Shown one piece after another: positions 5,101 to 58,034 of a stretch of DNA of 64,000 bases (positions are counted from its first letter, which is position 1; each line of letters begins with the position of its first letter). This stretch comes from a virus. The stretch is from positions 14,524 through 78,523 of IMG/VR virus record IMGVR_UViG_3300013195_000003. One strand, given 5' to 3'. The notes under the pieces are model-generated. The model had not been told where the DNA came from and did not search any database. It saw only the letters and a list, made by a program, of their open reading frames with translations. A program made the position numbers and the translations under genes.

Positions 5101-5708
5101 ATATGAAAAATCCTAGCAAACTTAAGGTTGGATCTCATTATCCAGCTGGAACACAGGTTGGACTGATGGGTTACTCTGGAAACACAGATCCAAAAGGTCC
5201 CGATGGCACTCACCTTCATTGGGAAACAGGAACTAATGAAGCTGATGTGGGTCGTTCTGGTAGTAGTCTGTTCGATCCACTGTCGAAGTATAGTAAGTTT
5301 GCTCCTTTTAAAGGGACTCCTGGTTCGGATGGTCCTGACAGTGATTACGATCCTGCTTCTGTGCAAAATCCTTCAGAATATAGCGACCGTAGTTCTGGTT
5401 TATTAGTGTCTCCTGCCACTAATATGGTTAGAGATTTTGCGACAAATGTTCGTAATACTGGTGAAAGATTGCAGAAGAGTATGGAATCTCAGGGTATGGA
5501 ATCTGGTCTTGCTGCCTCTCTTGGTGCAGCACTAGCACCATTGGGCAACCTGAAGCAGTCTCTGATGGAAGCTGTAAGTGCTGGACGCCCTGCGCCTGCT
5601 GTTGGAAGCGCTGATGGTGGTGGTGTGTCTAGTGATGGTGATGTTTCAATGTTCCCCACCTCCTCACCAGTTAGAGATGGTGGTCACGTGTTCCAAGGAG
5701 ATGTTTGA
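2172..5708 (+). CDS. gp29-like hub/tape-measure-type protein with C-terminal M23 peptidase domain
   Basis: Long Ala/Gly/Lys-rich helical region with hydrophobic glycine-zipper segments; M23 motifs HQGVDIA (HxxxD), GYGNSI, YAHM and HLHWE at about 4900-5230. Confidence 0.7.
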   Translation: MASESKIQALLTVNSAQLQAQSAQINAQKITNNLLSDVLNAQIKTNGLLGAQNAISRKRVSADKFSAQENAIEKFRKKNVGKKSDIKLPGKINWKNVLGLGALTLGVAALVSAIDGISRGLAGFADRLDGIAQGLEDFEVKVRETAGKVRDFLTPIPGFSMFGLRQASMGVDAAKSGRYATTGRQVRGAVGKGIANAARGTANLTGKAIKGTGNLALDGVEAGLNRIAATNTATIADKLDDIAIRQGARARSTTLATGLTPKTLKDSLVSALKTTREKAAGFVSSTRQGAGRGLDAIKAAPGNLNTQRKLFMQGITGADDVSVLRTAGRPFPNVARGAGSLADEVGGFFRAGRGLRTGAQNAVSATRQAVSAATPQGVKQFIAVSKAAGPQAAILGVFDDIVKNLKNLKVKTITSLGSALKALPGQFATLGKSLKGFAGGIKTAVANFDLGKAAIQVSKVGSRGAQGLAKGAAGIVRGVPGAAGKLAETISRARAPMIGPKPPPGLLSRTGTMLKDGAGAAVKGTGSVLKRFPVLGSLISAGFGALEANTEEMERLRAENPEMTDEQIKAGLADGTLKKDKAKIIGRSAGAGAGAGVGTVVGGILGSALGPIGTAVGAAAGAWLGENVGKFLGEGFANTFKTFDWGKTFGPVIDTFKSLAGSITGALDAVAGAFGIKGDGEGGSGGFIVALKNIGRIIGIIAKLLLKTLAPALNLVMNTIKAVVDGITMLIKGISAVIGGVFNLVKGITSNPLMQVLPGVKELNALLSGGNGDIIGSISNFIDGNPQPAVDPAAGQNDPDLPQGGREPRKRKRGYGIGGGFNLFNPFSWGKSVNESIDNARDNANLGGNAFGYNNRYKNVTDPNMRRMLGLPEGGRTPKQKGRGGKGGRGHGIMSLGGRGRGIGGPAVRVSSHRGMRWGRMHQGVDIAPTGSKLHMPMYLPKPAKIVDKRREGGGDAGYGNSIYFTTSDGITHLYAHMKNPSKLKVGSHYPAGTQVGLMGYSGNTDPKGPDGTHLHWETGTNEADVGRSGSSLFDPLSKYSKFAPFKGTPGSDGPDSDYDPASVQNPSEYSDRSSGLLVSPATNMVRDFATNVRNTGERLQKSMESQGMESGLAASLGAALAPLGNLKQSLMEAVSAGRPAPAVGSADGGGVSSDGDVSMFPTSSPVRDGGHVFQGDV

Positions 5709-12728: not shown

Positions 12729-12729
12729 T

Positions 12730-12814
12730 GCGAGTGTGGTGGAATCGGTAGACACACCAGACTTAAAATCTGTTGAGCATTACGCTCGTGCGAGTTCAAG
12801 TCTCGCCACTCGCA
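12730..12814 (+). tRNA. trnL: tRNA-Leu (anticodon TAA)
   Basis: Acceptor GCGAGTG/CACTCGC, D-loop TGGAATCGGTAGAC, anticodon arm CAGA-CTTAAAA-TCTG, long variable arm, GTTCAAGT T-loop; CCA not encoded. Confidence 0.93.
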
Positions 12815-12816
12815 TC

Positions 12817-15204: not shown

Positions 15205-15231
15205 TATACTAGGGGGGTCAACCCCCTTCAT

Positions 15232-15303
15232 TCCTCTTTAGCTCAGCGGTAGAGCGAACGACTGTTAATCGTTTGGTCCCTGGTTCGATCCCAGGAAGGG
15301 GAG
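15232..15303 (+). tRNA. trnN: tRNA-Asn (anticodon GTT)
   Basis: Acceptor TCCTCTT/AAGGGGA, D-arm GCTC-AGCGGTA-GAGC, anticodon arm AACGA-CTGTTAA-TCGTT, T-arm CCTGG-TTCGATC-CCAGG; CCA not encoded. Confidence 0.95.
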
Positions 15304-15319
15304 TTTACTTTTTTCTGTT

Positions 15320-41405: not shown

Positions 41406-42665
41406 ATGGCAGAATTTTTCATCGACGTTGGTAAGATTAAGCTTACCTGGCAAGGCAACTGGTCATCTTCCACAGATTATGTGGTTGATGACCTTGTGTG
41501 GTATGATGACGGCAGTACCGTTAGTACTTACATTTGTGTTGCCGACAATACAAACCAAGGACCATCTGTTACTGGTACAGTAAACACTAGTTACTGGAAT
41601 CTATTTGCTGGTGGTGGTCTTGCTGGTGGTTTGCAACCTGGAGGTACTACATCTAATCAGATTCAGTATAGATCTGGTTTAGCACTGGGTGCTGAAACTG
41701 GATTTGAATATGATCCTGCAACTGACATTATGTCGGTCCCTGCTATCAGTATTGGTGGTAGTGCAGCTGGTTCTCCCGCATATGATCTGGATGTTACTGG
41801 TACAATGCGTGCCACTCAGATCTGGGAAGGTGCCAATCAATTGACATATAATATCAGTGGTGGACAGGTTACTACTGGTACTATTGACAATGCTAGACTG
41901 CCTGCAACAATTTCTGTTACTGACTTAGCAGCATCCGCAGGACTTGTTATTAAGACTGATGGTCTGGTTTATGACACTTCCACTGATCGTGTTGGCATTG
42001 GTACTGCCGTACCTGCAGCACGTTTGGATGTTAAATCAATTGCATTATCAACAGCTGATGATGTAGTTGCTCGTTTTAGATCTGATCATACCAATGCATT
42101 TGGTACGTTCATTGAAGTGATGCCTAATACATCACAGGCACAGAAGTCTGGTATTCATTTACATAAGAACTCTCTTAGAAGTGAACCTGCTACTATCGTT
42201 AATGATGGTGGTGTTCTTACCATTAGCACAGAGGATACTGCTAATCCTACAGTAAATATGGATTTGGGTGGTGTTAACAAATTTATGTTGACATCTGATT
42301 TGTTAGAGGTCAATACACCATTAAGACTTAATGGTTGTTTTGATGAAGCTGTGGATAATACTACTATCAGCTCTGGTACTGTTACTATCGATGCAACAGA
42401 TGCATCTGTGTTTGCAATTACTAGAACTGAAGCTATCACTTCGATGAGCATTAATTTGCCAGCAAATGCTCGTGGTGTTTCTGTTACTTTGGTGATGACA
42501 TCTAATGGTAGTTACTCTATTGCCTGGCCACCTAATACTAAGTGGGCTGGTGGTACACCTCCTACATTATCTTCCGTTGCTGGTAGAATTGACGTGGTTA
42601 CATTATCAACTACTAATAATGGTCTGTCTTGGTTAGGTTTCGTTGGAGGACTTGATTTCCAATGA
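41406..42665 (+). CDS. Tail fibre protein (paralog of 43321-44241)
   Basis: N-terminal IDVGKIKL.WQG.W.....Y.VDD.V.Y module; C-terminal SIAWP...KWAGG.PPTLS...GRIDVVTL.T...G..W.GF.GG.DF. Confidence 0.8.
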   Translation: MAEFFIDVGKIKLTWQGNWSSSTDYVVDDLVWYDDGSTVSTYICVADNTNQGPSVTGTVNTSYWNLFAGGGLAGGLQPGGTTSNQIQYRSGLALGAETGFEYDPATDIMSVPAISIGGSAAGSPAYDLDVTGTMRATQIWEGANQLTYNISGGQVTTGTIDNARLPATISVTDLAASAGLVIKTDGLVYDTSTDRVGIGTAVPAARLDVKSIALSTADDVVARFRSDHTNAFGTFIEVMPNTSQAQKSGIHLHKNSLRSEPATIVNDGGVLTISTEDTANPTVNMDLGGVNKFMLTSDLLEVNTPLRLNGCFDEAVDNTTISSGTVTIDATDASVFAITRTEAITSMSINLPANARGVSVTLVMTSNGSYSIAWPPNTKWAGGTPPTLSSVAGRIDVVTLSTTNNGLSWLGFVGGLDFQ

Positions 42666-51851: not shown

Positions 51852-52003
51852 TGCGGGGTATCTGGTCATTGGCATCAGTTGTGGTCACGGGTGGTCTCAT
51901 CTATGTCTGTATGATGCCAGCAGACGCTCAAGCTGAGACCGTGCAAACAATCGTGGACCTGATCCATTCTGCTCCCAAGGCACGCGACGGCGAGACCTAC
52001 TAG
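51851..52003 (+). CDS. Small membrane/secreted hypothetical protein (50 aa; not in track)
   Basis: MRGIWSLASVVVTGGLIYVCMMPADAQAETVQ...; TGATG coupling. Confidence 0.5.
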   Translation: MRGIWSLASVVVTGGLIYVCMMPADAQAETVQTIVDLIHSAPKARDGETY

Positions 52004-52059
52004 GACAGTCCACACAGTGTCCACTCTCCCCCTGACACTGCCCGCTCTTGCCCTATAAT
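52003..52059 (+). promoter_or_regulatory. Early promoter cassette (dyad + CTGACA/TATAAT)
   Basis: GGACAGT-CCACAC-AGTGTCCAC at 52003-52024; -10 at 52054-52059. Confidence 0.7.
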
Positions 52060-52082
52060 ATGTTCATCAGCAAAGGACACCA

Positions 52083-52322
52083 ATGCAACTCCTGACCTCC
52101 GCCACACAGATTGACTACTATCCCGTCACTCCTGCTGGCAAGCGCTATGTGCGTCGTGTCACCTGGCATCCTGGTGCTGACACCGAGATGACCACATTCT
52201 CCACCATCGTTAAGTCTGAGATGATCTACGATGCTAACCAGCACATTGCCAACGGTGCTCAGGTTACAGACTTCAATGTTCATTGCTACAACGGTTCTGA
52301 CTACGCTCCTCTCTCCTGCTGA
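52083..52322 (+). CDS. Hypothetical protein
   Basis: First ORF after the promoter. Confidence 0.65.
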   Translation: MQLLTSATQIDYYPVTPAGKRYVRRVTWHPGADTEMTTFSTIVKSEMIYDANQHIANGAQVTDFNVHCYNGSDYAPLSC

Positions 52323-52324
52323 TT

Positions 52325-52486
52325 ATGCTCAAAGCAACTATTATCAAGACCATCCGTGAGTGTTGCGAAGGCACAGCACTAAGTAAGGTTGAGAAGTTCC
52401 AAGTCTTCTGCCACGTATGTGACAATATGCTGGCTGAAGGTCACATCACCAAAACACAACACGAGCGTTACACCAATGTTTTCTAA
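52325..52486 (+). CDS. Hypothetical protein (53 aa; not in track)
   Basis: MLKATIIKTIRECCEGTALSKVEKFQVFCHVCDNMLAEGHITKTQHERYTNVF*. Confidence 0.6.
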   Translation: MLKATIIKTIRECCEGTALSKVEKFQVFCHVCDNMLAEGHITKTQHERYTNVF

Positions 52487-52649
52487 AGCTGACACCGACT
52501 TCATTGATTTTCTCTTCGGCAAACTCACCTCACTTGTAGATGTCGAAGAACTTGATCTCCACGATGATGACACTTGCTGTGATCATCTTGAACTAAAAGC
52601 AGCAGAGCTTGAGATGACTGTTGACGAAATGCTGCACGCTGATCTATAA
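52476..52649 (+). CDS. Hypothetical protein (57 aa)
   Basis: Acidic ORF; ATG overlaps the previous gene end. Confidence 0.55.
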   Translation: MFSKADTDFIDFLFGKLTSLVDVEELDLHDDDTCCDHLELKAAELEMTVDEMLHADL

Positions 52650-52671
52650 TACTATTGACAATACCTATGCT

Positions 52672-52848
52672 ATGCGTCACTGTATTCGCCTAACTCAAAA
52701 TGAAGTTAAAGTCCTCGCAGATGCCCTCCAGTTCCTCTCAAAGTCCCAGCAAAGAAACGTCGAACGTAGTCATCACACCCGATGTGACGAACTCTACCTC
52801 CACCTCGCAAAAGAGCTCGGACGACTTGAATCAGAGCAACAGGTATGA
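52672..52848 (+). CDS. Hypothetical protein (58 aa)
   Basis: Follows TTGACG-N18-TATAAT (52621-52650). Confidence 0.55.
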   Translation: MRHCIRLTQNEVKVLADALQFLSKSQQRNVERSHHTRCDELYLHLAKELGRLESEQQV

Positions 52849-52867
52849 TGATACATACCGTAAGCAT

Positions 52868-53077
52868 ATGCGCGGGATGTTAGATGACATTGTTATGGAG
52901 TACATTAACGACGATACAAATGTTACTCCATACGACTTCATCAGCGACCTCAAGACAAGCTTGTATGAAATACAGGATTACTATCAGGGTCAGATGAATC
53001 GTGTCAATGCCATCCTTGCTTATCTCAATGGTGAACAATCACCTCACCTCTTTGATCGTAAATCTAAAGAAATGTAG
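52868..53077 (+). CDS. Hypothetical protein (start uncertain; frame open from 52700)
   Basis: Helical acidic ORF MRGMLDDIVMEYI...LAYL. Confidence 0.5.
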   Translation: MRGMLDDIVMEYINDDTNVTPYDFISDLKTSLYEIQDYYQGQMNRVNAILAYLNGEQSPHLFDRKSKEM

Positions 53078-53142
53078 GTGATTGTACAACAATCCCAGTC
53101 CTGATCTGATAAAATACTATTGTCATTTCAACACACAACTCT

Positions 53143-53328
53143 ATGGACACTGAATCAAAAACTGAAAAACGCCGTAGAGCATTGGGATTGTTCATTGAAT
53201 CAGTATACAAACCTGATCCTCAGCTTCGCCAATGTGCACATAATCAGATTTGTTACCACGAGTTGTTAGAGTACAGAGATGAAGTTCTCCAATATCTGTA
53301 CTCTAAGTATGACAGCGAATTCAATTAA
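53143..53328 (+). CDS. Conserved cyanophage hypothetical protein
   Basis: KRRRAL.LFIESV.KPD..LRQCAHNQ.CYHEL.E.R.EVL.YL pattern. Confidence 0.7.
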   Translation: MDTESKTEKRRRALGLFIESVYKPDPQLRQCAHNQICYHELLEYRDEVLQYLYSKYDSEFN

Positions 53329-53963
53329 GTATTCTTGAAGTAACGGATCATTCCTTCACTAGGAACAATATATGATCCTTCTTCAGTGTCATTAGTTTCA
53401 CTACACATACGAGGCATTCTACTCGCCCACGTTGTTGCAATGTATTTTGTACCACCGATGGGCGGGTTTCCTCTATGTACGTGTGTATAACTTGCAGGGA
53501 AGATAACAGTCTTGCCCTTCTCTGGTTTCACACGTACACCTTGATATAAGAATTCAGTTTCACCACCTTCAAAATCATCATTGAGGTATGTAATGATCAC
53601 AAATTGTCTGCCTTGTGTCAAGAAACCAGCTCCATCATAATGCCAACGATGGAAACCCTCACCTGGATTAGTTGCTTGTACTTTAGTAGCATCCATATAG
53701 TAATCTTGCTGTGCTAGATGTTGAAATTCATCCAGATATTTTGTACCAGCAAGCTTTGACCATTGAGTATGGAGAGTATGACGTAAATCAGGTCTTGATC
53801 CTTCAGTTAACCAAAATTGAAAGTCTTTACGATCAATTGTATCTTGCTTAACTGACACTTCATTCTTACTCGCACCACTACGTAATTCTTCTGCATAAGC
53901 AATCAATGCATCACAAAAACTACTAGGTGCGTGGTTTTTATATTCACGAATAAAGTTCTCCAT
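53325..53963 (-). CDS. 2OG-Fe(II) oxygenase (prolyl-4-hydroxylase-like)
   Basis: GEGFHRWHYD, YLNDDFEGGETEF, GK.VIFPA.YTHVHRGNPP..G.KYIAT.W. Confidence 0.88.
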   Translation of the reverse strand: MENFIREYKNHAPSSFCDALIAYAEELRSGASKNEVSVKQDTIDRKDFQFWLTEGSRPDLRHTLHTQWSKLAGTKYLDEFQHLAQQDYYMDATKVQATNPGEGFHRWHYDGAGFLTQGRQFVIITYLNDDFEGGETEFLYQGVRVKPEKGKTVIFPASYTHVHRGNPPIGGTKYIATTWASRMPRMCSETNDTEEGSYIVPSEGMIRYFKNT

Positions 53964-54142
53964 TAATTCCTAAGACCACCATCAAAAATAAACTCTTTCG
54001 CCTCTTGAAATGAAGCTAATGTAACTATTGTACCATCATCCTTGCGGACTGTAAACCCATCCTCGGTCTCATCAATCAAATGAGCAAACATTCTATCTTC
54101 TAACTCATCTAAATCAAACGAGTCACAATTCTTGCATCCCAT
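53963..54142 (-). CDS. Hypothetical protein (59 aa; not in track)
   Basis: MGCKNCDSFDLDELEDRMFAHLIDETEDGFTVRKDDGTIVTLASFQEAKEFIFDGGLRN*; TAATG-coupled to the oxygenase. Confidence 0.6.
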   Translation of the reverse strand: MGCKNCDSFDLDELEDRMFAHLIDETEDGFTVRKDDGTIVTLASFQEAKEFIFDGGLRN

Positions 54143-54144
54143 AG

Positions 54145-54173
54145 TATAATACTGGAAACGACACCACTATTTA
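54145..54173. promoter_or_regulatory. Overlapping divergent promoters: early TATAAT (+) and late TAAATA (-)
   Basis: TATAAT at 54145-54150 (+); TATTTA at 54168-54173 (TAAATA on -). Confidence 0.6.
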
Positions 54174-54180
54174 CCCACCA

Positions 54181-54477
54181 ATGATTGATGTCACGCAAAA
54201 CGAAGACGGAAGCTTCAGTGTCTCCTGGGACGAAAACGACCCGAAAGAAAGCATCCTCAACTCCTACACCCAAGACGACTTCAAAGCGCTCATCCAAAAC
54301 TACCTCGACAAAACCCAAGCAGAACAAGACTACGCAGGCAAACGAGGTAAAAACACAACGATCTTTAGAGACAAATCTAAGAGCAAAGGCAACATCACCG
54401 AAGCGTCAGAAGAAGACTACCACGACTTCTGGTACAACTCGCCAGACCCGAAAGTCCAAAAGTTCGGTTTCCATTAA
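54181..54477 (+). CDS. Conserved cyanophage hypothetical protein (acidic)
   Basis: MIDV.QNEDGSF.VSWDENDP.ESILN..T.DDF...I pattern. Confidence 0.65.
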   Translation: MIDVTQNEDGSFSVSWDENDPKESILNSYTQDDFKALIQNYLDKTQAEQDYAGKRGKNTTIFRDKSKSKGNITEASEEDYHDFWYNSPDPKVQKFGFH

Positions 54478-54676
54478 ACCACCAACACGTTCGCGTGACC
54501 TGACATTATTCCCACATAAGGCATTTCCATATAGAATAGAGATTAAGAATGAAAAACGTGTAGCGTGGTTTCAATGTGAAGAGCACGCTATCAAGTTCCT
54601 TCAACGCCATCACCCTAAACCATTCACTCATTTCAAATACTATGTCTTCCCCCAAGATCAACCTGCAACAGCATAA
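54185..54676 (+). CDS. Hypothetical protein with K/T/S/R-rich N-terminus (overlaps 54181 in another frame)
   Basis: C-terminal FPH..FPYRIE.K......WFQCEEHA.K...R looks like a genuine globular domain; true start uncertain. Confidence 0.55.
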   Translation: MMSRKTKTEASVSPGTKTTRKKASSTPTPKTTSKRSSKTTSTKPKQNKTTQANEVKTQRSLETNLRAKATSPKRQKKTTTTSGTTRQTRKSKSSVSIKPPTRSRDLTLFPHKAFPYRIEIKNEKRVAWFQCEEHAIKFLQRHHPKPFTHFKYYVFPQDQPATA

Positions 54677-54911
54677 ACAAGCTCTTAGACAAATCATCTC
54701 TGATCTAATCAATGCTCCCGACACCACATCAACACAATTGTATGATGATCTAAACGACGCCCTGGATAAAGCAATCGAAGATACAACTAATGCCACAGTC
54801 AAAGCACAAGCAATGAAAGATCTGATCTTAGGCAAACGTCCCCTTGATTTGGATAATGGTGTGACACAAGAAGAAGTGACACGTTCTAAGAATATCCCAC
54901 CTAGATACTAG
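54642..54911 (+). CDS. Hypothetical protein (89 aa)
   Basis: Helical ORF; ATG 54642. Confidence 0.6.
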   Translation: MSSPKINLQQHKQALRQIISDLINAPDTTSTQLYDDLNDALDKAIEDTTNATVKAQAMKDLILGKRPLDLDNGVTQEEVTRSKNIPPRY

Positions 54912-54940
54912 TTGACACTCACCCCCACCAGCTGTATAAT
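54912..54940 (+). promoter_or_regulatory. Consensus sigma70 promoter
   Basis: TTGACA (54912-54917), 17-nt spacer, TATAAT (54935-54940). Confidence 0.85.
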
Positions 54941-54962
54941 GAACACATCAACCAACAAACCA

Positions 54963-55127
54963 ATGACTCACGAAGAAATGCTTGAAGTCGCATACCAACG
55001 TGAAACTGAACTCACTGTTGATGATGCACTAGAGGAACTCGCTTACATTGTACAAGGTGGACAAGATGCTGAAGAGTTTCAACAATCAATCAGAGTCATT
55101 GCTCAAGTATTGGAACAGTACAAATGA
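54963..55127 (+). CDS. Hypothetical protein (54 aa)
   Basis: MTHEEMLEVAYQRE; follows the promoter. Confidence 0.55.
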   Translation: MTHEEMLEVAYQRETELTVDDALEELAYIVQGGQDAEEFQQSIRVIAQVLEQYK

Positions 55128-55315
55128 TTACTACAGCATTCAAACTATTCTTTGCATTCACTAGGTGGGGTAAACTATCCAATGATGACATCAGAGTCAT
55201 TAAAACTACATCATTTAAACAACTATTCCACTCACCATACATCATCACCAAGTATAGTTCTAAGAACCAATCATTAGAACAATATACACCAGTACTCCGC
55301 ACGGGAGCTCCCTAG
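55124..55315 (+). CDS. Hypothetical protein
   Basis: ATGA-coupled ORF. Confidence 0.5.
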   Translation: MITTAFKLFFAFTRWGKLSNDDIRVIKTTSFKQLFHSPYIITKYSSKNQSLEQYTPVLRTGAP

Positions 55316-55341
55316 TTACTTCAAGGTATCTCACCAGTAGC

Positions 55342-55374
55342 TGTGGATAACTCTGTGGAAAAACCTGTGGAAAA
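55342..55374 (-). promoter_or_regulatory. Three tandem DnaA-box matches (12-nt period)
   Basis: TGTGGATAA 55342-50, TGTGGAAAA 55354-62 and TGTGGAAAA 55366-74; these read TTATCCACA/TTTTCCACA on the minus strand and all fit TTWTNCACA. Confidence 0.6.
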
Positions 55375-55447
55375 CTAAATGGTTAAAAAAACATAGGTTG
55401 TGTGTTCTATTCAGCTCAGTCCTTGTAGTCTTAGCACGCAACCTATC

Positions 55448-55550
55448 GAAAGTCAAGAATCTGTAAAACTCCGAAATCTCAGAAATCTTAAAATCTTAAA
55501 AAGTCAAAAAGTTTAAAAAGTCAAATTTTAAGATTTAAAGATTAAATAGA
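55448..55550. repeat. AT-rich short tandem repeats (8-9 nt units) with internal inverted repeat
   Basis: GAAATCTCA GAAATCTTA AAATCTTA AAAAGTCA AAAAGTTT AAAAAGTCA ...; AAATCTTAAA is mirrored by TTTAAGATTT. Confidence 0.8.
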
Positions 55551-55552
55551 CT

Positions 55553-55582
55553 TTGCCAAACCCCGTGTGGGTATGGTATAAT
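55553..55582 (+). promoter_or_regulatory. sigma70-type promoter
   Basis: TTGCCA-N18-TATAAT with TG extension. Confidence 0.65.
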
Positions 55583-55603
55583 ACTACTGTTAACGTTTAA
55601 CCT

Positions 55604-56005
55604 ATGACTACTAAGTACGAAGAACTACCATCTACAGCTATTGAGTATATGGAACTAGACTTTGATAGTTCTGTAGTTAAACTAGTATATAAATCCAATA
55701 CTAATAAACAGTATGGATATAAATGTGAAGATCTAGACGAATTTCAGAGTGCTTTTATGCAACTCTGTGGAAAACTAGAAGCTGAACAAGATAGAGACGA
55801 TGAAGATAATCTCATTGAATCTGAAGAAGATACTATTGCTAGAGAAGATGCTAGTATTGGTAAGTTTATTAATCAAAGAATTCAATTGAGCAATCTAAAG
55901 CTAGACTATATCCTAGAGTTAACTCAGGATATGACTGAGAAGGGATGGGATAGTTTTGACGGTAGTACTGTACCACAAAATGCTGTTATTGTTGGTGATG
56001 AGTGA
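55604..56005 (+). CDS. KTSC-like domain protein
   Basis: PSTAIEYM..D.....V.LVYKS....Y.Y and later SIGKFIN..I resemble KTSC with an acidic insertion; by-eye match. Confidence 0.5.
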   Translation: MTTKYEELPSTAIEYMELDFDSSVVKLVYKSNTNKQYGYKCEDLDEFQSAFMQLCGKLEAEQDRDDEDNLIESEEDTIAREDASIGKFINQRIQLSNLKLDYILELTQDMTEKGWDSFDGSTVPQNAVIVGDE

Positions 56006-56059
56006 CAGTTTTTGTACTGTCCACTAACACTTGCATTTTGAATCTACCTGTGCCATAGT
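56003..56059 (+). promoter_or_regulatory. Early promoter cassette (dyad + TTGCAT-N17-CATAGT)
   Basis: TGACAGTT-TTTG-TACTGTCCAC at 56003-56024. Confidence 0.6.
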
Positions 56060-56080
56060 ATCACTATCGACACAAATCGA

Positions 56081-56332
56081 ATGACCAATCAATCACCAAA
56101 CGAGTCTGATCTTTTCTCCCTAAAGGAGAACTATTCAAACCACATTATTGACTCGATGGATATGGATTCCCTCGTGCAATTTGCGTTCGATAACTTAATC
56201 GAATACTTCAAAGATCACACCTGGGATGATATGTGTGAAGAGATCAAATCTCTCTATGATGAAGATACTTTGATCGACCTGTTGCCAGAGGCAGCTGATG
56301 TGACAGTTCAAGAGGTGTCCACTACCCCTTGA
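56081..56332 (+). CDS. Hypothetical protein
   Basis: Acidic ORF; its C-terminus runs into the next promoter cassette. Confidence 0.6.
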   Translation: MTNQSPNESDLFSLKENYSNHIIDSMDMDSLVQFAFDNLIEYFKDHTWDDMCEEIKSLYDEDTLIDLLPEAADVTVQEVSTTP

Positions 56333-56357
56333 CCTGACCCCCCATCTCCTGTATCTT
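56301..56357 (+). promoter_or_regulatory. Early promoter cassette (dyad + TTGACC-N17-TATCTT)
   Basis: TGACAGTT-CAAG-AGGTGTCCAC at 56301-56322. Confidence 0.7.
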
Positions 56358-56384
56358 ATAGAAGTCAACCAAACACGACACCAA

Positions 56385-56708
56385 ATGCGCAAGATCGAAT
56401 CCCTGATGAACGCTGCAGTTTCTAACAACAAGAACTGGACAAACAGCAACACCAGTGTTACGTATTGCCCCGAATCTGACGAGTCCCGTGTATACCTGCA
56501 CGGCAACCACATTGCCACTGTGGGTGACAACTTCCTTCAAATCTTTGATGGTGGTTGGCAATCCAACACCACCAAATCTCGCCTGAATGCTCTCATCAAT
56601 TGCTTCTGTAATGGTGTGACCGATGGTGTACATCAGAAGGACTTTGCTTGGTACATTCGTGACAACAATGTGACCCGCGATTTCGTTAACGGTTACATCT
56701 TCGCTTGA
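56385..56708 (+). CDS. Conserved cyanophage early hypothetical protein
   Basis: MRKIE..M..A......W...NT.V......S.VYLHGN.IA.V......IFDGGWQS.TTKSRLNAL pattern. Confidence 0.75.
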   Translation: MRKIESLMNAAVSNNKNWTNSNTSVTYCPESDESRVYLHGNHIATVGDNFLQIFDGGWQSNTTKSRLNALINCFCNGVTDGVHQKDFAWYIRDNNVTRDFVNGYIFA

Positions 56709-56720
56709 ACGTGTTACAAT

Positions 56721-56749
56721 GGGCGGGTATAAATAACCCGTCCTTTTTT
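56721..56749 (+). terminator. Intrinsic terminator with TAAATA in the loop
   Basis: GGGCGGGT-ATAAATA-ACCCGTCC-TTTTTT. Confidence 0.75.
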
Positions 56750-56957
56750 GTATCTTATGACTATCACCAGAGACGGACTAATTCGCGAGTTAGTTGCACA
56801 ACGGATGAAGACAGTTGAGGGTGAGAAGTATACAGAAACTCTCCATCAATTGTACAAAAATTATGAGGACATCGACCTCGAATCCATTGTTGCACGATAT
56901 AACTTAGAATTCAGCCGAGCTGTGACAGTTGACGAGGTGTCCACTTTGCTCCCCTAA
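56748..56957 (+). CDS. Hypothetical protein
   Basis: Helical ORF ending in cassette-derived VTVDEVSTLLP. Confidence 0.55.
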   Translation: MYLMTITRDGLIRELVAQRMKTVEGEKYTETLHQLYKNYEDIDLESIVARYNLEFSRAVTVDEVSTLLP

Positions 56958-56980
56958 ACTGCAGACCCTGTGCCTATAAT
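56923..56980 (+). promoter_or_regulatory. Early promoter cassette (dyad + TATAAT)
   Basis: TGACAGTT-GACG-AGGTGTCCAC at 56923-56944; TATAAT at 56975-56980. Confidence 0.7.
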
Positions 56981-56986
56981 GTCTGT

Positions 56987-57184
56987 ATGATCAATCAAAC
57001 CTACTCCATCGAGTGCCCTGCACTCTCCGAAACCGAAACCACCACCGACCTGGATCGGGCGTGGGACCTGTGCTTCTCTATGCATCAGGAGTCCAACTCC
57101 TATGCTTGCGTCCGTGATGCCTCTGGTGATATCATCGGAGAGTACGGCGACGTGATCCAAGGCATCGCAGATATGCTCTTCTGA
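56987..57184 (+). CDS. Hypothetical protein
   Basis: Y.IECPAL.E.ETT.DLDRA.DLC.SM..ES..YA.VRD pattern. Confidence 0.65.
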   Translation: MINQTYSIECPALSETETTTDLDRAWDLCFSMHQESNSYACVRDASGDIIGEYGDVIQGIADMLF

Positions 57185-57387
57185 TGCCTGACCCCTGTAC
57201 CATTGCCCTTCACTACGACCGAATTATGTGGGATGAGATCCAAGACGCCCCAGGTGAGATTTTTGACACCGCAGCTCGGGATGCTGCCCTTGATGCCCTG
57301 ATTGAGGATGCCCTATTCGATGGGGATGAGACCACGATGATGGACGATGAGCGAAGTGTCCTACGTGCCATAGACGAGGCATTCTGA
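57184..57387 (+). CDS. Hypothetical protein
   Basis: TGATG-coupled acidic ORF. Confidence 0.55.
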   Translation: MPDPCTIALHYDRIMWDEIQDAPGEIFDTAARDAALDALIEDALFDGDETTMMDDERSVLRAIDEAF

Positions 57388-57420
57388 CCCCTTACAATAC
57401 ACACAAGCAACCAAACCACA

Positions 57421-57660
57421 ATGCTCAAGATCCTTTCCTATGGTGCCGCCTTCGCTGCTGGTCTGGTCGTCGGTAACGGCGAGATTCGCGAGGGCATTCA
57501 GGTTACCACTGCTGACACCCTTGCCGATGTCGCTGAATTCGTACGCCCCGAGGATGCAGACGTTAACGGTGCACCGATGGGCGGACCCTACGGCAAGCGA
57601 TCCTACATCGCTCCCCCCTCGGTGAACAACACCCCCGAGGGTCCTTATGCCGCTCAATGA
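57421..57660 (+). CDS. Hypothetical protein with N-terminal hydrophobic segment
   Basis: MLKILSYGAAFAAGLVVG; follows dyad (57342-64) and TACAAT (57393-98). Confidence 0.6.
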   Translation: MLKILSYGAAFAAGLVVGNGEIREGIQVTTADTLADVAEFVRPEDADVNGAPMGGPYGKRSYIAPPSVNNTPEGPYAAQ

Positions 57661-57728
57661 GCTGTCCACCTAACGGCGCTTTCCGTCCCAAGGGTCGCTA
57701 CAATTCACACATCAACCAAACGAACCAA

Positions 57729-57986
57729 ATGCAAGCACTCGAAACGATGATCCCCGAGCGTGAGACGTTCAACGGGTGGACCAACTATGAGACCTGGAAC
57801 GTCGCCCTGTGGTTGCAGAATGACGAGGCGATGTACCGTGTCGCTCGTGTCTATGGTCACAGCGGGTACGATCACCTGATCCCCACCCTTGAGGTGAACT
57901 TCGGACAGATGACCCCCGATGGTGTCCGTTGGATGGATGGACGCATCGACACCGATGAACTCGATGAGATGCTGGAGGATCTCTGA
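57729..57986 (+). CDS. Conserved phage early protein (NGWTNYETWNVALW family)
   Basis: Recognisable YNGW.NYETWNVALW..NDE..Y motif; follows dyad (57648-69) and TACAAT (57699-704). Confidence 0.75.
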   Translation: MQALETMIPERETFNGWTNYETWNVALWLQNDEAMYRVARVYGHSGYDHLIPTLEVNFGQMTPDGVRWMDGRIDTDELDEMLEDL

Positions 57987-58034
57987 GGGGTCGCCCCCTC
58001 CGTGCTACAATACCACCAAACCAACCAACCACGA

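Follow-up and report, generated by a model that had tools for sequence, protein, structure and literature searches.

Three closely spaced 9-mers that look like protein-binding sites for host DnaA were found in a non-coding gap of the window (the whole 64,000-nt stretch of DNA analysed here), which is part of a 105-kb source contig, a fragment (55% complete) of the genome of an uncultured marine cyanomyovirus known from marine metagenomes only. The 9-mers belong to a syntenic, single-copy non-coding module found in Synechococcus myoviruses of at least seven named Kyanoviridae genera, S-PM2 included. Sequence comparisons support their interpretation as host-type DnaA boxes under selection, and a link between the host initiator and the replication start or early genes of the virus is probable, since the boxes are kept at the same place in related cyanophages. 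As the best single explanation, we tentatively favour the boxes being an accessory of a conserved early-promoter, origin-like module, a possible replication origin at which DnaA could act as accessory opener or timer. No description of DnaA boxes in T4-like cyanophages was found in the literature searched.

The three boxes of the array lie on the same strand with an exact 12-nt period and are separated by the spacers CTC and ACC (Table 1). On the plus strand, positions 55341-55376 consist of three 12-nt units, each with the core TGTGGAWAA, and Tandem Repeats Finder reported 3.0 copies of the 12-nt unit in this interval. The preliminary description had reported three same-orientation 9-mers at 12-nt spacing, one TTATCCACA and two TTTTCCACA, and their coordinates and strand were verified. 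The fourth box at 55766-55774 also lies, as it had claimed, within an identical 14-mer, AACTCTGTGGAAAA, which is common to this box and box 2; a 13-mer is shared with box 3. The location in the longest non-coding gap was likewise corroborated: the ORF-free stretch 55316-55603 (288 nt), flanked by a 63-aa ORF on the left and the 133-aa early gene on the right, is the largest internal one in the whole window.

Table 1. Predicted features of the module and its surroundings in the window.
Feature	Position	Strand	Description
Left edge motif (tccgca..gagctccctag)	55296..55315	+	Ten-phage alignment and module survey; most relatives
DnaA box 1	55342-55350	minus	TTATCCACA, E. coli-type perfect consensus
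DnaA box 2	55354-55362	minus	TTTTCCACA, cyanobacterial consensus; unchanged in 10/10 aligned phages
DnaA box 3	55366-55374	minus	TTTTCCACA; unchanged; fixed 2-nt distance to the conserved block in most modules
Conserved 70-80-nt non-coding block	55377..55456		nhmmer survey and alignment; 36/36 modules, with boxes or not
Leftward promoter-like element	55428..55456	minus	TTGACT (55456-55451), 17 nt, TAAGAC (55433-55428), TG before
AT-rich tract	55458..55552		78-87% A+T, 8-9-nt repeats; starts ~85 nt after box 3
Early promoter, sigma-70-type	55553..55582	+	TTGCCA-18-TATAAT, TG before -10; serves downstream gene
Small early gene, 133 aa	55604..56005	+	Weak relative of S-PM2p063 (T4-like gene cluster 805)
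Fourth DnaA box	55766-55774	minus	TTTTCCACA; within the 133-aa gene, codons Cys-Gly-Lys

The degenerate consensus TTWTNCACA is found eight times in the whole window against 8.1 expected, so only the clustering is non-random. Three or more same-strand boxes within 40 nt were obtained in 0 of 500 order-2 Markov shuffles and two or more in 0.6% of them, while the analytic expectation for a three-box cluster is 1.7e-5, in agreement with the earlier statement that the cluster is non-random. The isolated copies mentioned at 42350 and 61667 are both present, the latter within a 1043-aa ORF, but the degenerate consensus also occurs at 5360 and 53482, two sites that had been overlooked. Local duplication, suggested as a possible source of the cluster, is countered by its conservation in relatives.

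A blastn search of 50,697 phage records with 951 nt around the site produced matches almost confined to the boxes and the next ~60 nt, in 31 Synechococcus myovirus records with 70-93% identity; in two near-identical Sf-CH records the match also included ~50 nt of the upstream ORF. Most of these matches are in unannotated gaps, in syntenic positions downstream of 2OG-Fe(II) oxygenase genes, and a second search added S-PM2, S-H9-1, S-B43, ACG-2014e/j and S-CAM4. The run TTGTGGAAAAAC.TGTGGAAA was unchanged in an alignment of ten phages, with diverging flanks. Box 1 is the variable position of the array. Most relatives have TTTTCCACA there, whereas the box is inverted in S-CAM3, S-RIM32 and S-PM2 and missing in S-CAM1.

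The module survey, carried out with nhmmer on the collected DNA, yielded 36 distinct copies with zero to three boxes each; only nhmmer-confirmed matches were included, and the matches of a pattern scan for the conserved block in viral contigs, mostly due to chance, were not counted. Five module-bearing lineages have no boxes (S-H9-1, S-B43, ACG-2014e, S-CAM4 and L337), L029, L016, L126 and L035 have two or three additional boxes abutting the AT tract, and no AT tract accompanies the three boxes, block and perfect TTGACA-17-TATAAT promoter of Syn9 and two relatives. Since box-less lineages exist and the Syn9 type is devoid of the tract, neither boxes nor AT tract are obligatory. On conservation across cyanomyoviruses, a check called for in the preliminary description, the proximal pair of boxes is invariant in ten phages, and the five lineages just named kept the module without boxes.

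Perfect boxes reach 2.61 per kb near modules versus 0.084 per kb elsewhere in the same contigs, in a sample that was partly selected for boxes. Raw counts of TTTTCCACA are 7-12 per genome versus 0-2 for the reversed control. Each of the five complete genomes analysed has a single cluster, outside which TTTTCCACA did not exceed the Markov or same-composition expectation; a genome-wide enrichment was therefore rejected, the excess being the cluster itself.

In S-H9-1 (L128:1150-1200) the place of the boxes is taken by an unrelated palindrome, TTCTCAATAA ... TTATTGAGAA, and in S-B43 (L131:1150-1200) by an unrelated palindrome with 7-nt arms. It looks as if, in the box-less modules, one protein-binding site had been exchanged for another. 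The fourth box of the window is kept in the relative L010, where the protein sequence is conserved too, while the IMG/VR contig L022 (1020-1060) has two boxes at about the same place in another frame (x-Val-Glu-Asn). The presence of boxes in the gene after the module in three lineages is a hint that the DNA, more than the protein, is under selection.

The order of the module is left edge motif, zero to three boxes, 70-nt block, early promoter, usually an AT-rich inverted-repeat tract, and small gene. The left edge motif corresponds in the window to the last codons and TAG stop of ORF 55124-55315, and is intergenic in Syn1. The block has the consensus AAATGG..AAAAA.ATAGGT...GTG...TTG..CTTAGC...CGA..GTCAA. 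A covarying hairpin in this block, seen by eye, was rejected because RNAalifold gave 0 consensus pairs for 24 module cores. An Rfam search of 54500-56500 returned only noise, with E up to 10, and a 12-nt inverted repeat (55393-55404 / 55435-55446) occurs in this phage only. As judged from these comparisons, the block is a DNA sequence motif, and its reading as a structured RNA is not supported.

In most copies, the block is followed by a dyad motif and the early promoter, whose -10 hexamer lies 59-61 nt beyond the block, and then by a short leader and the AT tract, which in most relatives is located between the promoter and the next gene. In the window and its nearest relatives, L010 and L013, the promoter comes after the AT tract, not before it, and neither a dyad nor a promoter is present ahead of the tract. 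The dyad of the relatives' rightward promoter (L002:1607-1680 and equivalents; window 56000-56060) is TGTGACA-N10-TGKCACA-like and precedes the -10 by ~30 nt. A leftward promoter-like geometry was recognized in 34 of the 36 modules; among these 34, the first hexamer is TTGACW in 33, the spacer is 17 nt in 32 and TG occupies the extended -10 position in 22, with TAAGAC, TAAGCC or TAAACC as the second hexamer. A consensus promoter scan of the window did not list this element, and its status as a promoter is doubtful, since the second hexamer lacks the final T.

The AT-rich tract of 8-9-nt repeats noted in the preliminary description is present, although its distance from box 3 is ~85 nt and not ~75 nt. 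It contains an 18-nt inverted repeat (55484-55501 vs 55526-55543, 94% complementary), and among 60- or 100-nt stretches it ranks as the second least stable in the 105-kb contig. The homologous tract of S-RIM44 is the least stable 100 nt of that genome, and the tract of S-PM2 was not among its six least stable stretches. The gene that comes after the module is a member of gene cluster 805 in all the relatives. No Pfam family was found for the 133-aa gene or three homologues, for which reason the KTSC-domain label given to the downstream gene in the Sf-FR1 annotation was rejected.

Several annotations overlap or surround the module. The S-PM2 record AJ630128 has tRNA-Asn and tRNA-Leu features over the module (L127:1439-1595), and others over CDSs; ARAGORN detected no tRNA anywhere in the S-PM2 3.1-kb stretch, and the feature coordinates of this record seem wrong. 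The window has genes for tRNA-Leu(TAA) at 12729-12816 and tRNA-Asn(GTT) at 15231-15304. Small hypothetical ORFs are annotated over the boxes and block in Syn1 (Syn1_073 and Syn1_074, L003:1484-1770) and in Syn9 (gp86 and gp87, L406:878-1198); the 10-nt indels and box inversions among relatives argue against these being genes. The 2OG-Fe(II) oxygenase gene of the window (53325-53963) is on the minus strand, so that transcription diverges ~1 kb upstream of the module, and in relatives it is on the same strand as the module.

Several lines of evidence bear on the identity of the 9-mers. The form TTTTCCACA, described earlier as known from cyanobacteria, is indeed the documented cyanobacterial DnaA-box consensus, and is bound in vitro by domain IV of cyanobacterial DnaA (PMC4674748). 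The tandem TGTGGAAAA-N3-TGTGGAAAA was found in 98 of 401 sampled cyanobacterial genomes versus 0 for the reversed control, and its spacers there are mostly CTC, CCC and ACC, the window having CTC and ACC. An identical 21-mer is located right after dnaA in an Oscillatoriales genome, in a five-box region, and the tandem is inside the classical origins of two small cyanobacterial genomes, together with TAG-repeat trios and box arrays. None of five complete box-bearing phages encodes a DnaA domain IV, whereas positive-control genomes were matched, so a DnaA-type binder would have to be that of the host. Orientation changes, gain and loss of copies, and non-triplet indels exclude a coding or RNA-structure reason for the conservation.

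Arrays of TGTGGAAAA with a 12-nt period, often with ACC or CCC as spacer, were also observed in at least 117 stretches of many unrelated IMG/VR contigs (examples are L025, L100, L111, L114, L043, L092 and L088). DnaA-box arrays are widespread in uncultured phages.

In the favoured reading, the 9-mers would be working binding sites for host DnaA, and the module would be the primary replication origin of the phage or its control region. Such an origin would be of the T4 kind, an early promoter combined with an element that melts readily. DnaA bound there would assist strand opening or time the firing, and the first phage replication round would be coupled to the host initiator's state. This is considered the best single explanation because a single-copy module and the largest non-coding stretch coincide with host-initiator sites that were repeatedly placed there, in several lineages against the AT tract. 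DnaA would not be needed for helicase loading, since these phages have a gp59-like loader of their own, which is common in Kyanoviridae (annotated in Syn9, with tblastn matches in hundreds of cyanophage records). An apparent absence of gp59 in five cyanophage genomes, obtained with Pfam PF08993 and a protein search, was discarded as false negatives on the basis of the Syn9 annotation and the tblastn matches.

Cumulative GC skew provided no origin signal in the contig, S-PM2 or S-RIM44, where it rises near-monotonically with gene orientation and shows a small dip near the module. A negative GC-skew run was observed just downstream of the module, at window 52000-58000 (contig 66-72 kb), S-PM2 20-26 kb and S-RIM44 56-62 kb. 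Contigs from two RNA libraries of one study begin at the boxes, run rightward and have higher depth. They were rejected as transcript evidence, being contigs of related strains that break where the conserved block meets variable flanks and that define neither a start nor a strand.

The main rival to the origin reading is transcription control alone, in which DnaA would act as a transcription factor or roadblock on the promoters of the module, tuning early expression to the replication or growth state of the host, with no role in replication. Its targets would be the early promoter that serves the small gene in the rightward direction and possibly the leftward element. In bacteria, DnaA has an established role in regulating transcription (PMC5742627), and what stays constant in the module is the 70-nt block together with the early promoter, held at a fixed distance in most relatives. 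Boxes can be upstream of the promoter, downstream in the leader or in the gene, the conserved TTGACW-17-TAAGMC geometry is directed into them, and a different palindrome in box-less modules is what would be expected of swapped regulator sites. However, the array is 130-210 nt from the rightward -10 in variable placement, which is loose for direct activation or repression, and the leftward element has a -10 hexamer devoid of its final T and does not resemble the other early promoters of the phage. The AT-rich inverted-repeat tract and the boxes adjoining it in four lineages would also be left unexplained. Transcription control as the sole function is thus regarded as rather unlikely, and it is compatible with the origin reading, since T4 origins are promoters.

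The array could instead manipulate the host DnaA pool, by titration or ATP hydrolysis as in datA, or by nucleotide exchange, as in DARS, where box 1 is inverted; amplified with the replicating phage genome, it would shut off or redirect host initiation. The boxes of the window are co-oriented, as in datA, those of S-CAM3, S-RIM32 and S-PM2 have one box opposite two, which is the layout of the DARS core (PMC5742627), and their copy number would rise with phage replication. On the other hand, several relatives are box-less, and a pure sink would not need an array at a fixed distance from a conserved block and promoter. With two or three boxes per genome, no excess elsewhere and tight coupling to the block, a sink or DARS-like function is improbable, and the datA-like sink offered in the preliminary description is not favoured. 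Finally, a reading of the repeats as iterons bound by a DNA-binding protein of the phage itself, with the DnaA-box match as coincidence or mimicry, is very improbable. T4 oriE also has evenly spaced 12-nt repeats, and whatever recognises the adjoining 70-nt block is clearly not DnaA. Nevertheless, the repeats have the exact cyanobacterial 9-mer consensus with the preferred flanking C and spacers, in either orientation and once as TTATCCACA; no DnaA-like domain IV is present in the five complete genomes, and the repeats of oriE are coding repeats of gene 5 with an unrelated sequence.

Marine T4-like cyanophages rank among the most abundant viruses that infect the main primary producers of the ocean. 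Conserved host-initiator sites in a unique non-coding module are a concrete, testable candidate for their origin or its control switch, and the presence of the module in the laboratory phages S-PM2 and Syn9 makes the idea directly testable there. As far as the literature searched shows, use of host DnaA at this module would be the first such case in a virulent T4-type phage with its own replisome. The stronger proposal, that these phages fire the first replication round from a single origin dependent on or licensed by host DnaA, seems rather unlikely. If it were true, phage DNA synthesis would be coupled to the activity of the host initiator, with for example light and growth dependence, and the palindrome-bearing box-less lineages would have switched to a different licensing factor. 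The only statement found on where and how marine T4-like cyanophages start replication is a prediction, cited in PMC2984593, that Syn9 has a single theta origin.

The bacterial oriC unwinding system (BUS), described in S. elongatus among others, consists of tandem boxes, a GC-rich 4-nt spacer, DnaA-trios and an AT-rich region (PMC8287927). Its boxes form a head-to-tail pair separated by no more than 3 bp, and three or more DnaA-trios (3'-NAN-5', mostly 3'-GAT-5') are located no further than 16 bp from a box, the trios and unwinding region lying 5' of the strand that reads TGTGGAAAA (PMC8287927). The phage array shares the host-consensus boxes (two TTTTCCACA and one TTATCCACA) and the head-to-tail tandem with gaps of no more than 3 bp (CTC, ACC). 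In contrast, it has no conserved trio array: TAG-CAG-CAC follows after a 1-nt spacer in the window, near chance and private, and the phage relatives keep one TAG followed by a 4-nt spacer, with the next trios broken. The expected unwinding side is the 3' end of ORF 55124-55315, whereas the AT tract of the phage is on the opposite side, 85-200 nt away, and neither dnaA nor dnaN is near the array. The cyanobacterial origins L399 and L401 have four TAG repeats beside their boxes, with the spacer GGCC in L401, and the BUS-forming pair is abutting, with a 9-nt period, in S. elongatus, Prochlorococcus SS120 and L401. By its layout, the phage module is not a copy of oriC. The oriC signature seen in the preliminary description does not apply in a strict sense, as a conserved trio array is lacking, the AT tract is on the wrong side and both boxes and tract are dispensable.

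The array resembles E. coli datA, DARS1 and DARS2 in being a short non-coding cluster of three boxes at fixed spacing, and datA in the common orientation of the boxes in the window. In the DARS core, three boxes are at fixed spacing with box I opposite to II and III (PMC5742627), an arrangement found in S-CAM3, S-RIM32 and S-PM2 and not in the co-oriented array of the window. In datA, the co-oriented boxes go with a site for a bending protein. The phage cluster differs from these loci in being embedded in a promoter module with no nameable IHF or Fis site, and in that its function would be either taken over from the host or turned against it.

The T4 origins oriF (uvsY) and oriG (gene 34) are R-loop origins with a promoter whose transcript runs straight into an A+T-rich unwinding element; origins of this type are defined by a persistent R-loop and by autonomous replication, during infection, of a cloned element of ~100 bp (PMC3016281). 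Most relatives have a similar arrangement, a sigma-70-type -10 and, within 30-60 nt, an AT-rich tract of 100-150 nt that belongs to the least stable DNA of the genome, and T4-type replisome genes with a gp59-like loader are shared. The differences are an early host-type promoter with an upstream dyad in place of the MotA-dependent middle promoter of T4, and host DnaA boxes attached in cyanophages, which no T4 origin has. Moreover, the only good promoter of the window, as in L010 and L013, comes after the tract, and Syn9 has no tract. In T4 oriE, direct repeats of 12 nt at regular intervals are combined with an early promoter, RepEA and RepEB being associated with this origin (PMC3016281). The three copies with a 12-nt period and an early promoter nearby in the phage module are a resemblance to oriE and not a homology. 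The T4 repeats are inside gene 5, where their coding periodicity is 24/48 nt, and bear no relation to the DnaA box, so they were rejected as kin of the boxes.

DnaA boxes take part in phage and plasmid replication control in P1 oriR, in pSC101 and in the pR-dependent activation of ori-lambda. There, as would be the case here, host DnaA is an accessory beside the replicon's own origin determinants and an AT-rich region, or stimulates origin-activating transcription. Those are temperate phages and plasmids that use the host replisome, whereas the phage of the window is virulent and T4-like, with its own polymerase, helicase, primase and loader. The preliminary interpretation is partly supported, and the array is regarded as a probable control region of this phage and plasmid type with host DnaA boxes, here in a virulent T4-type phage.
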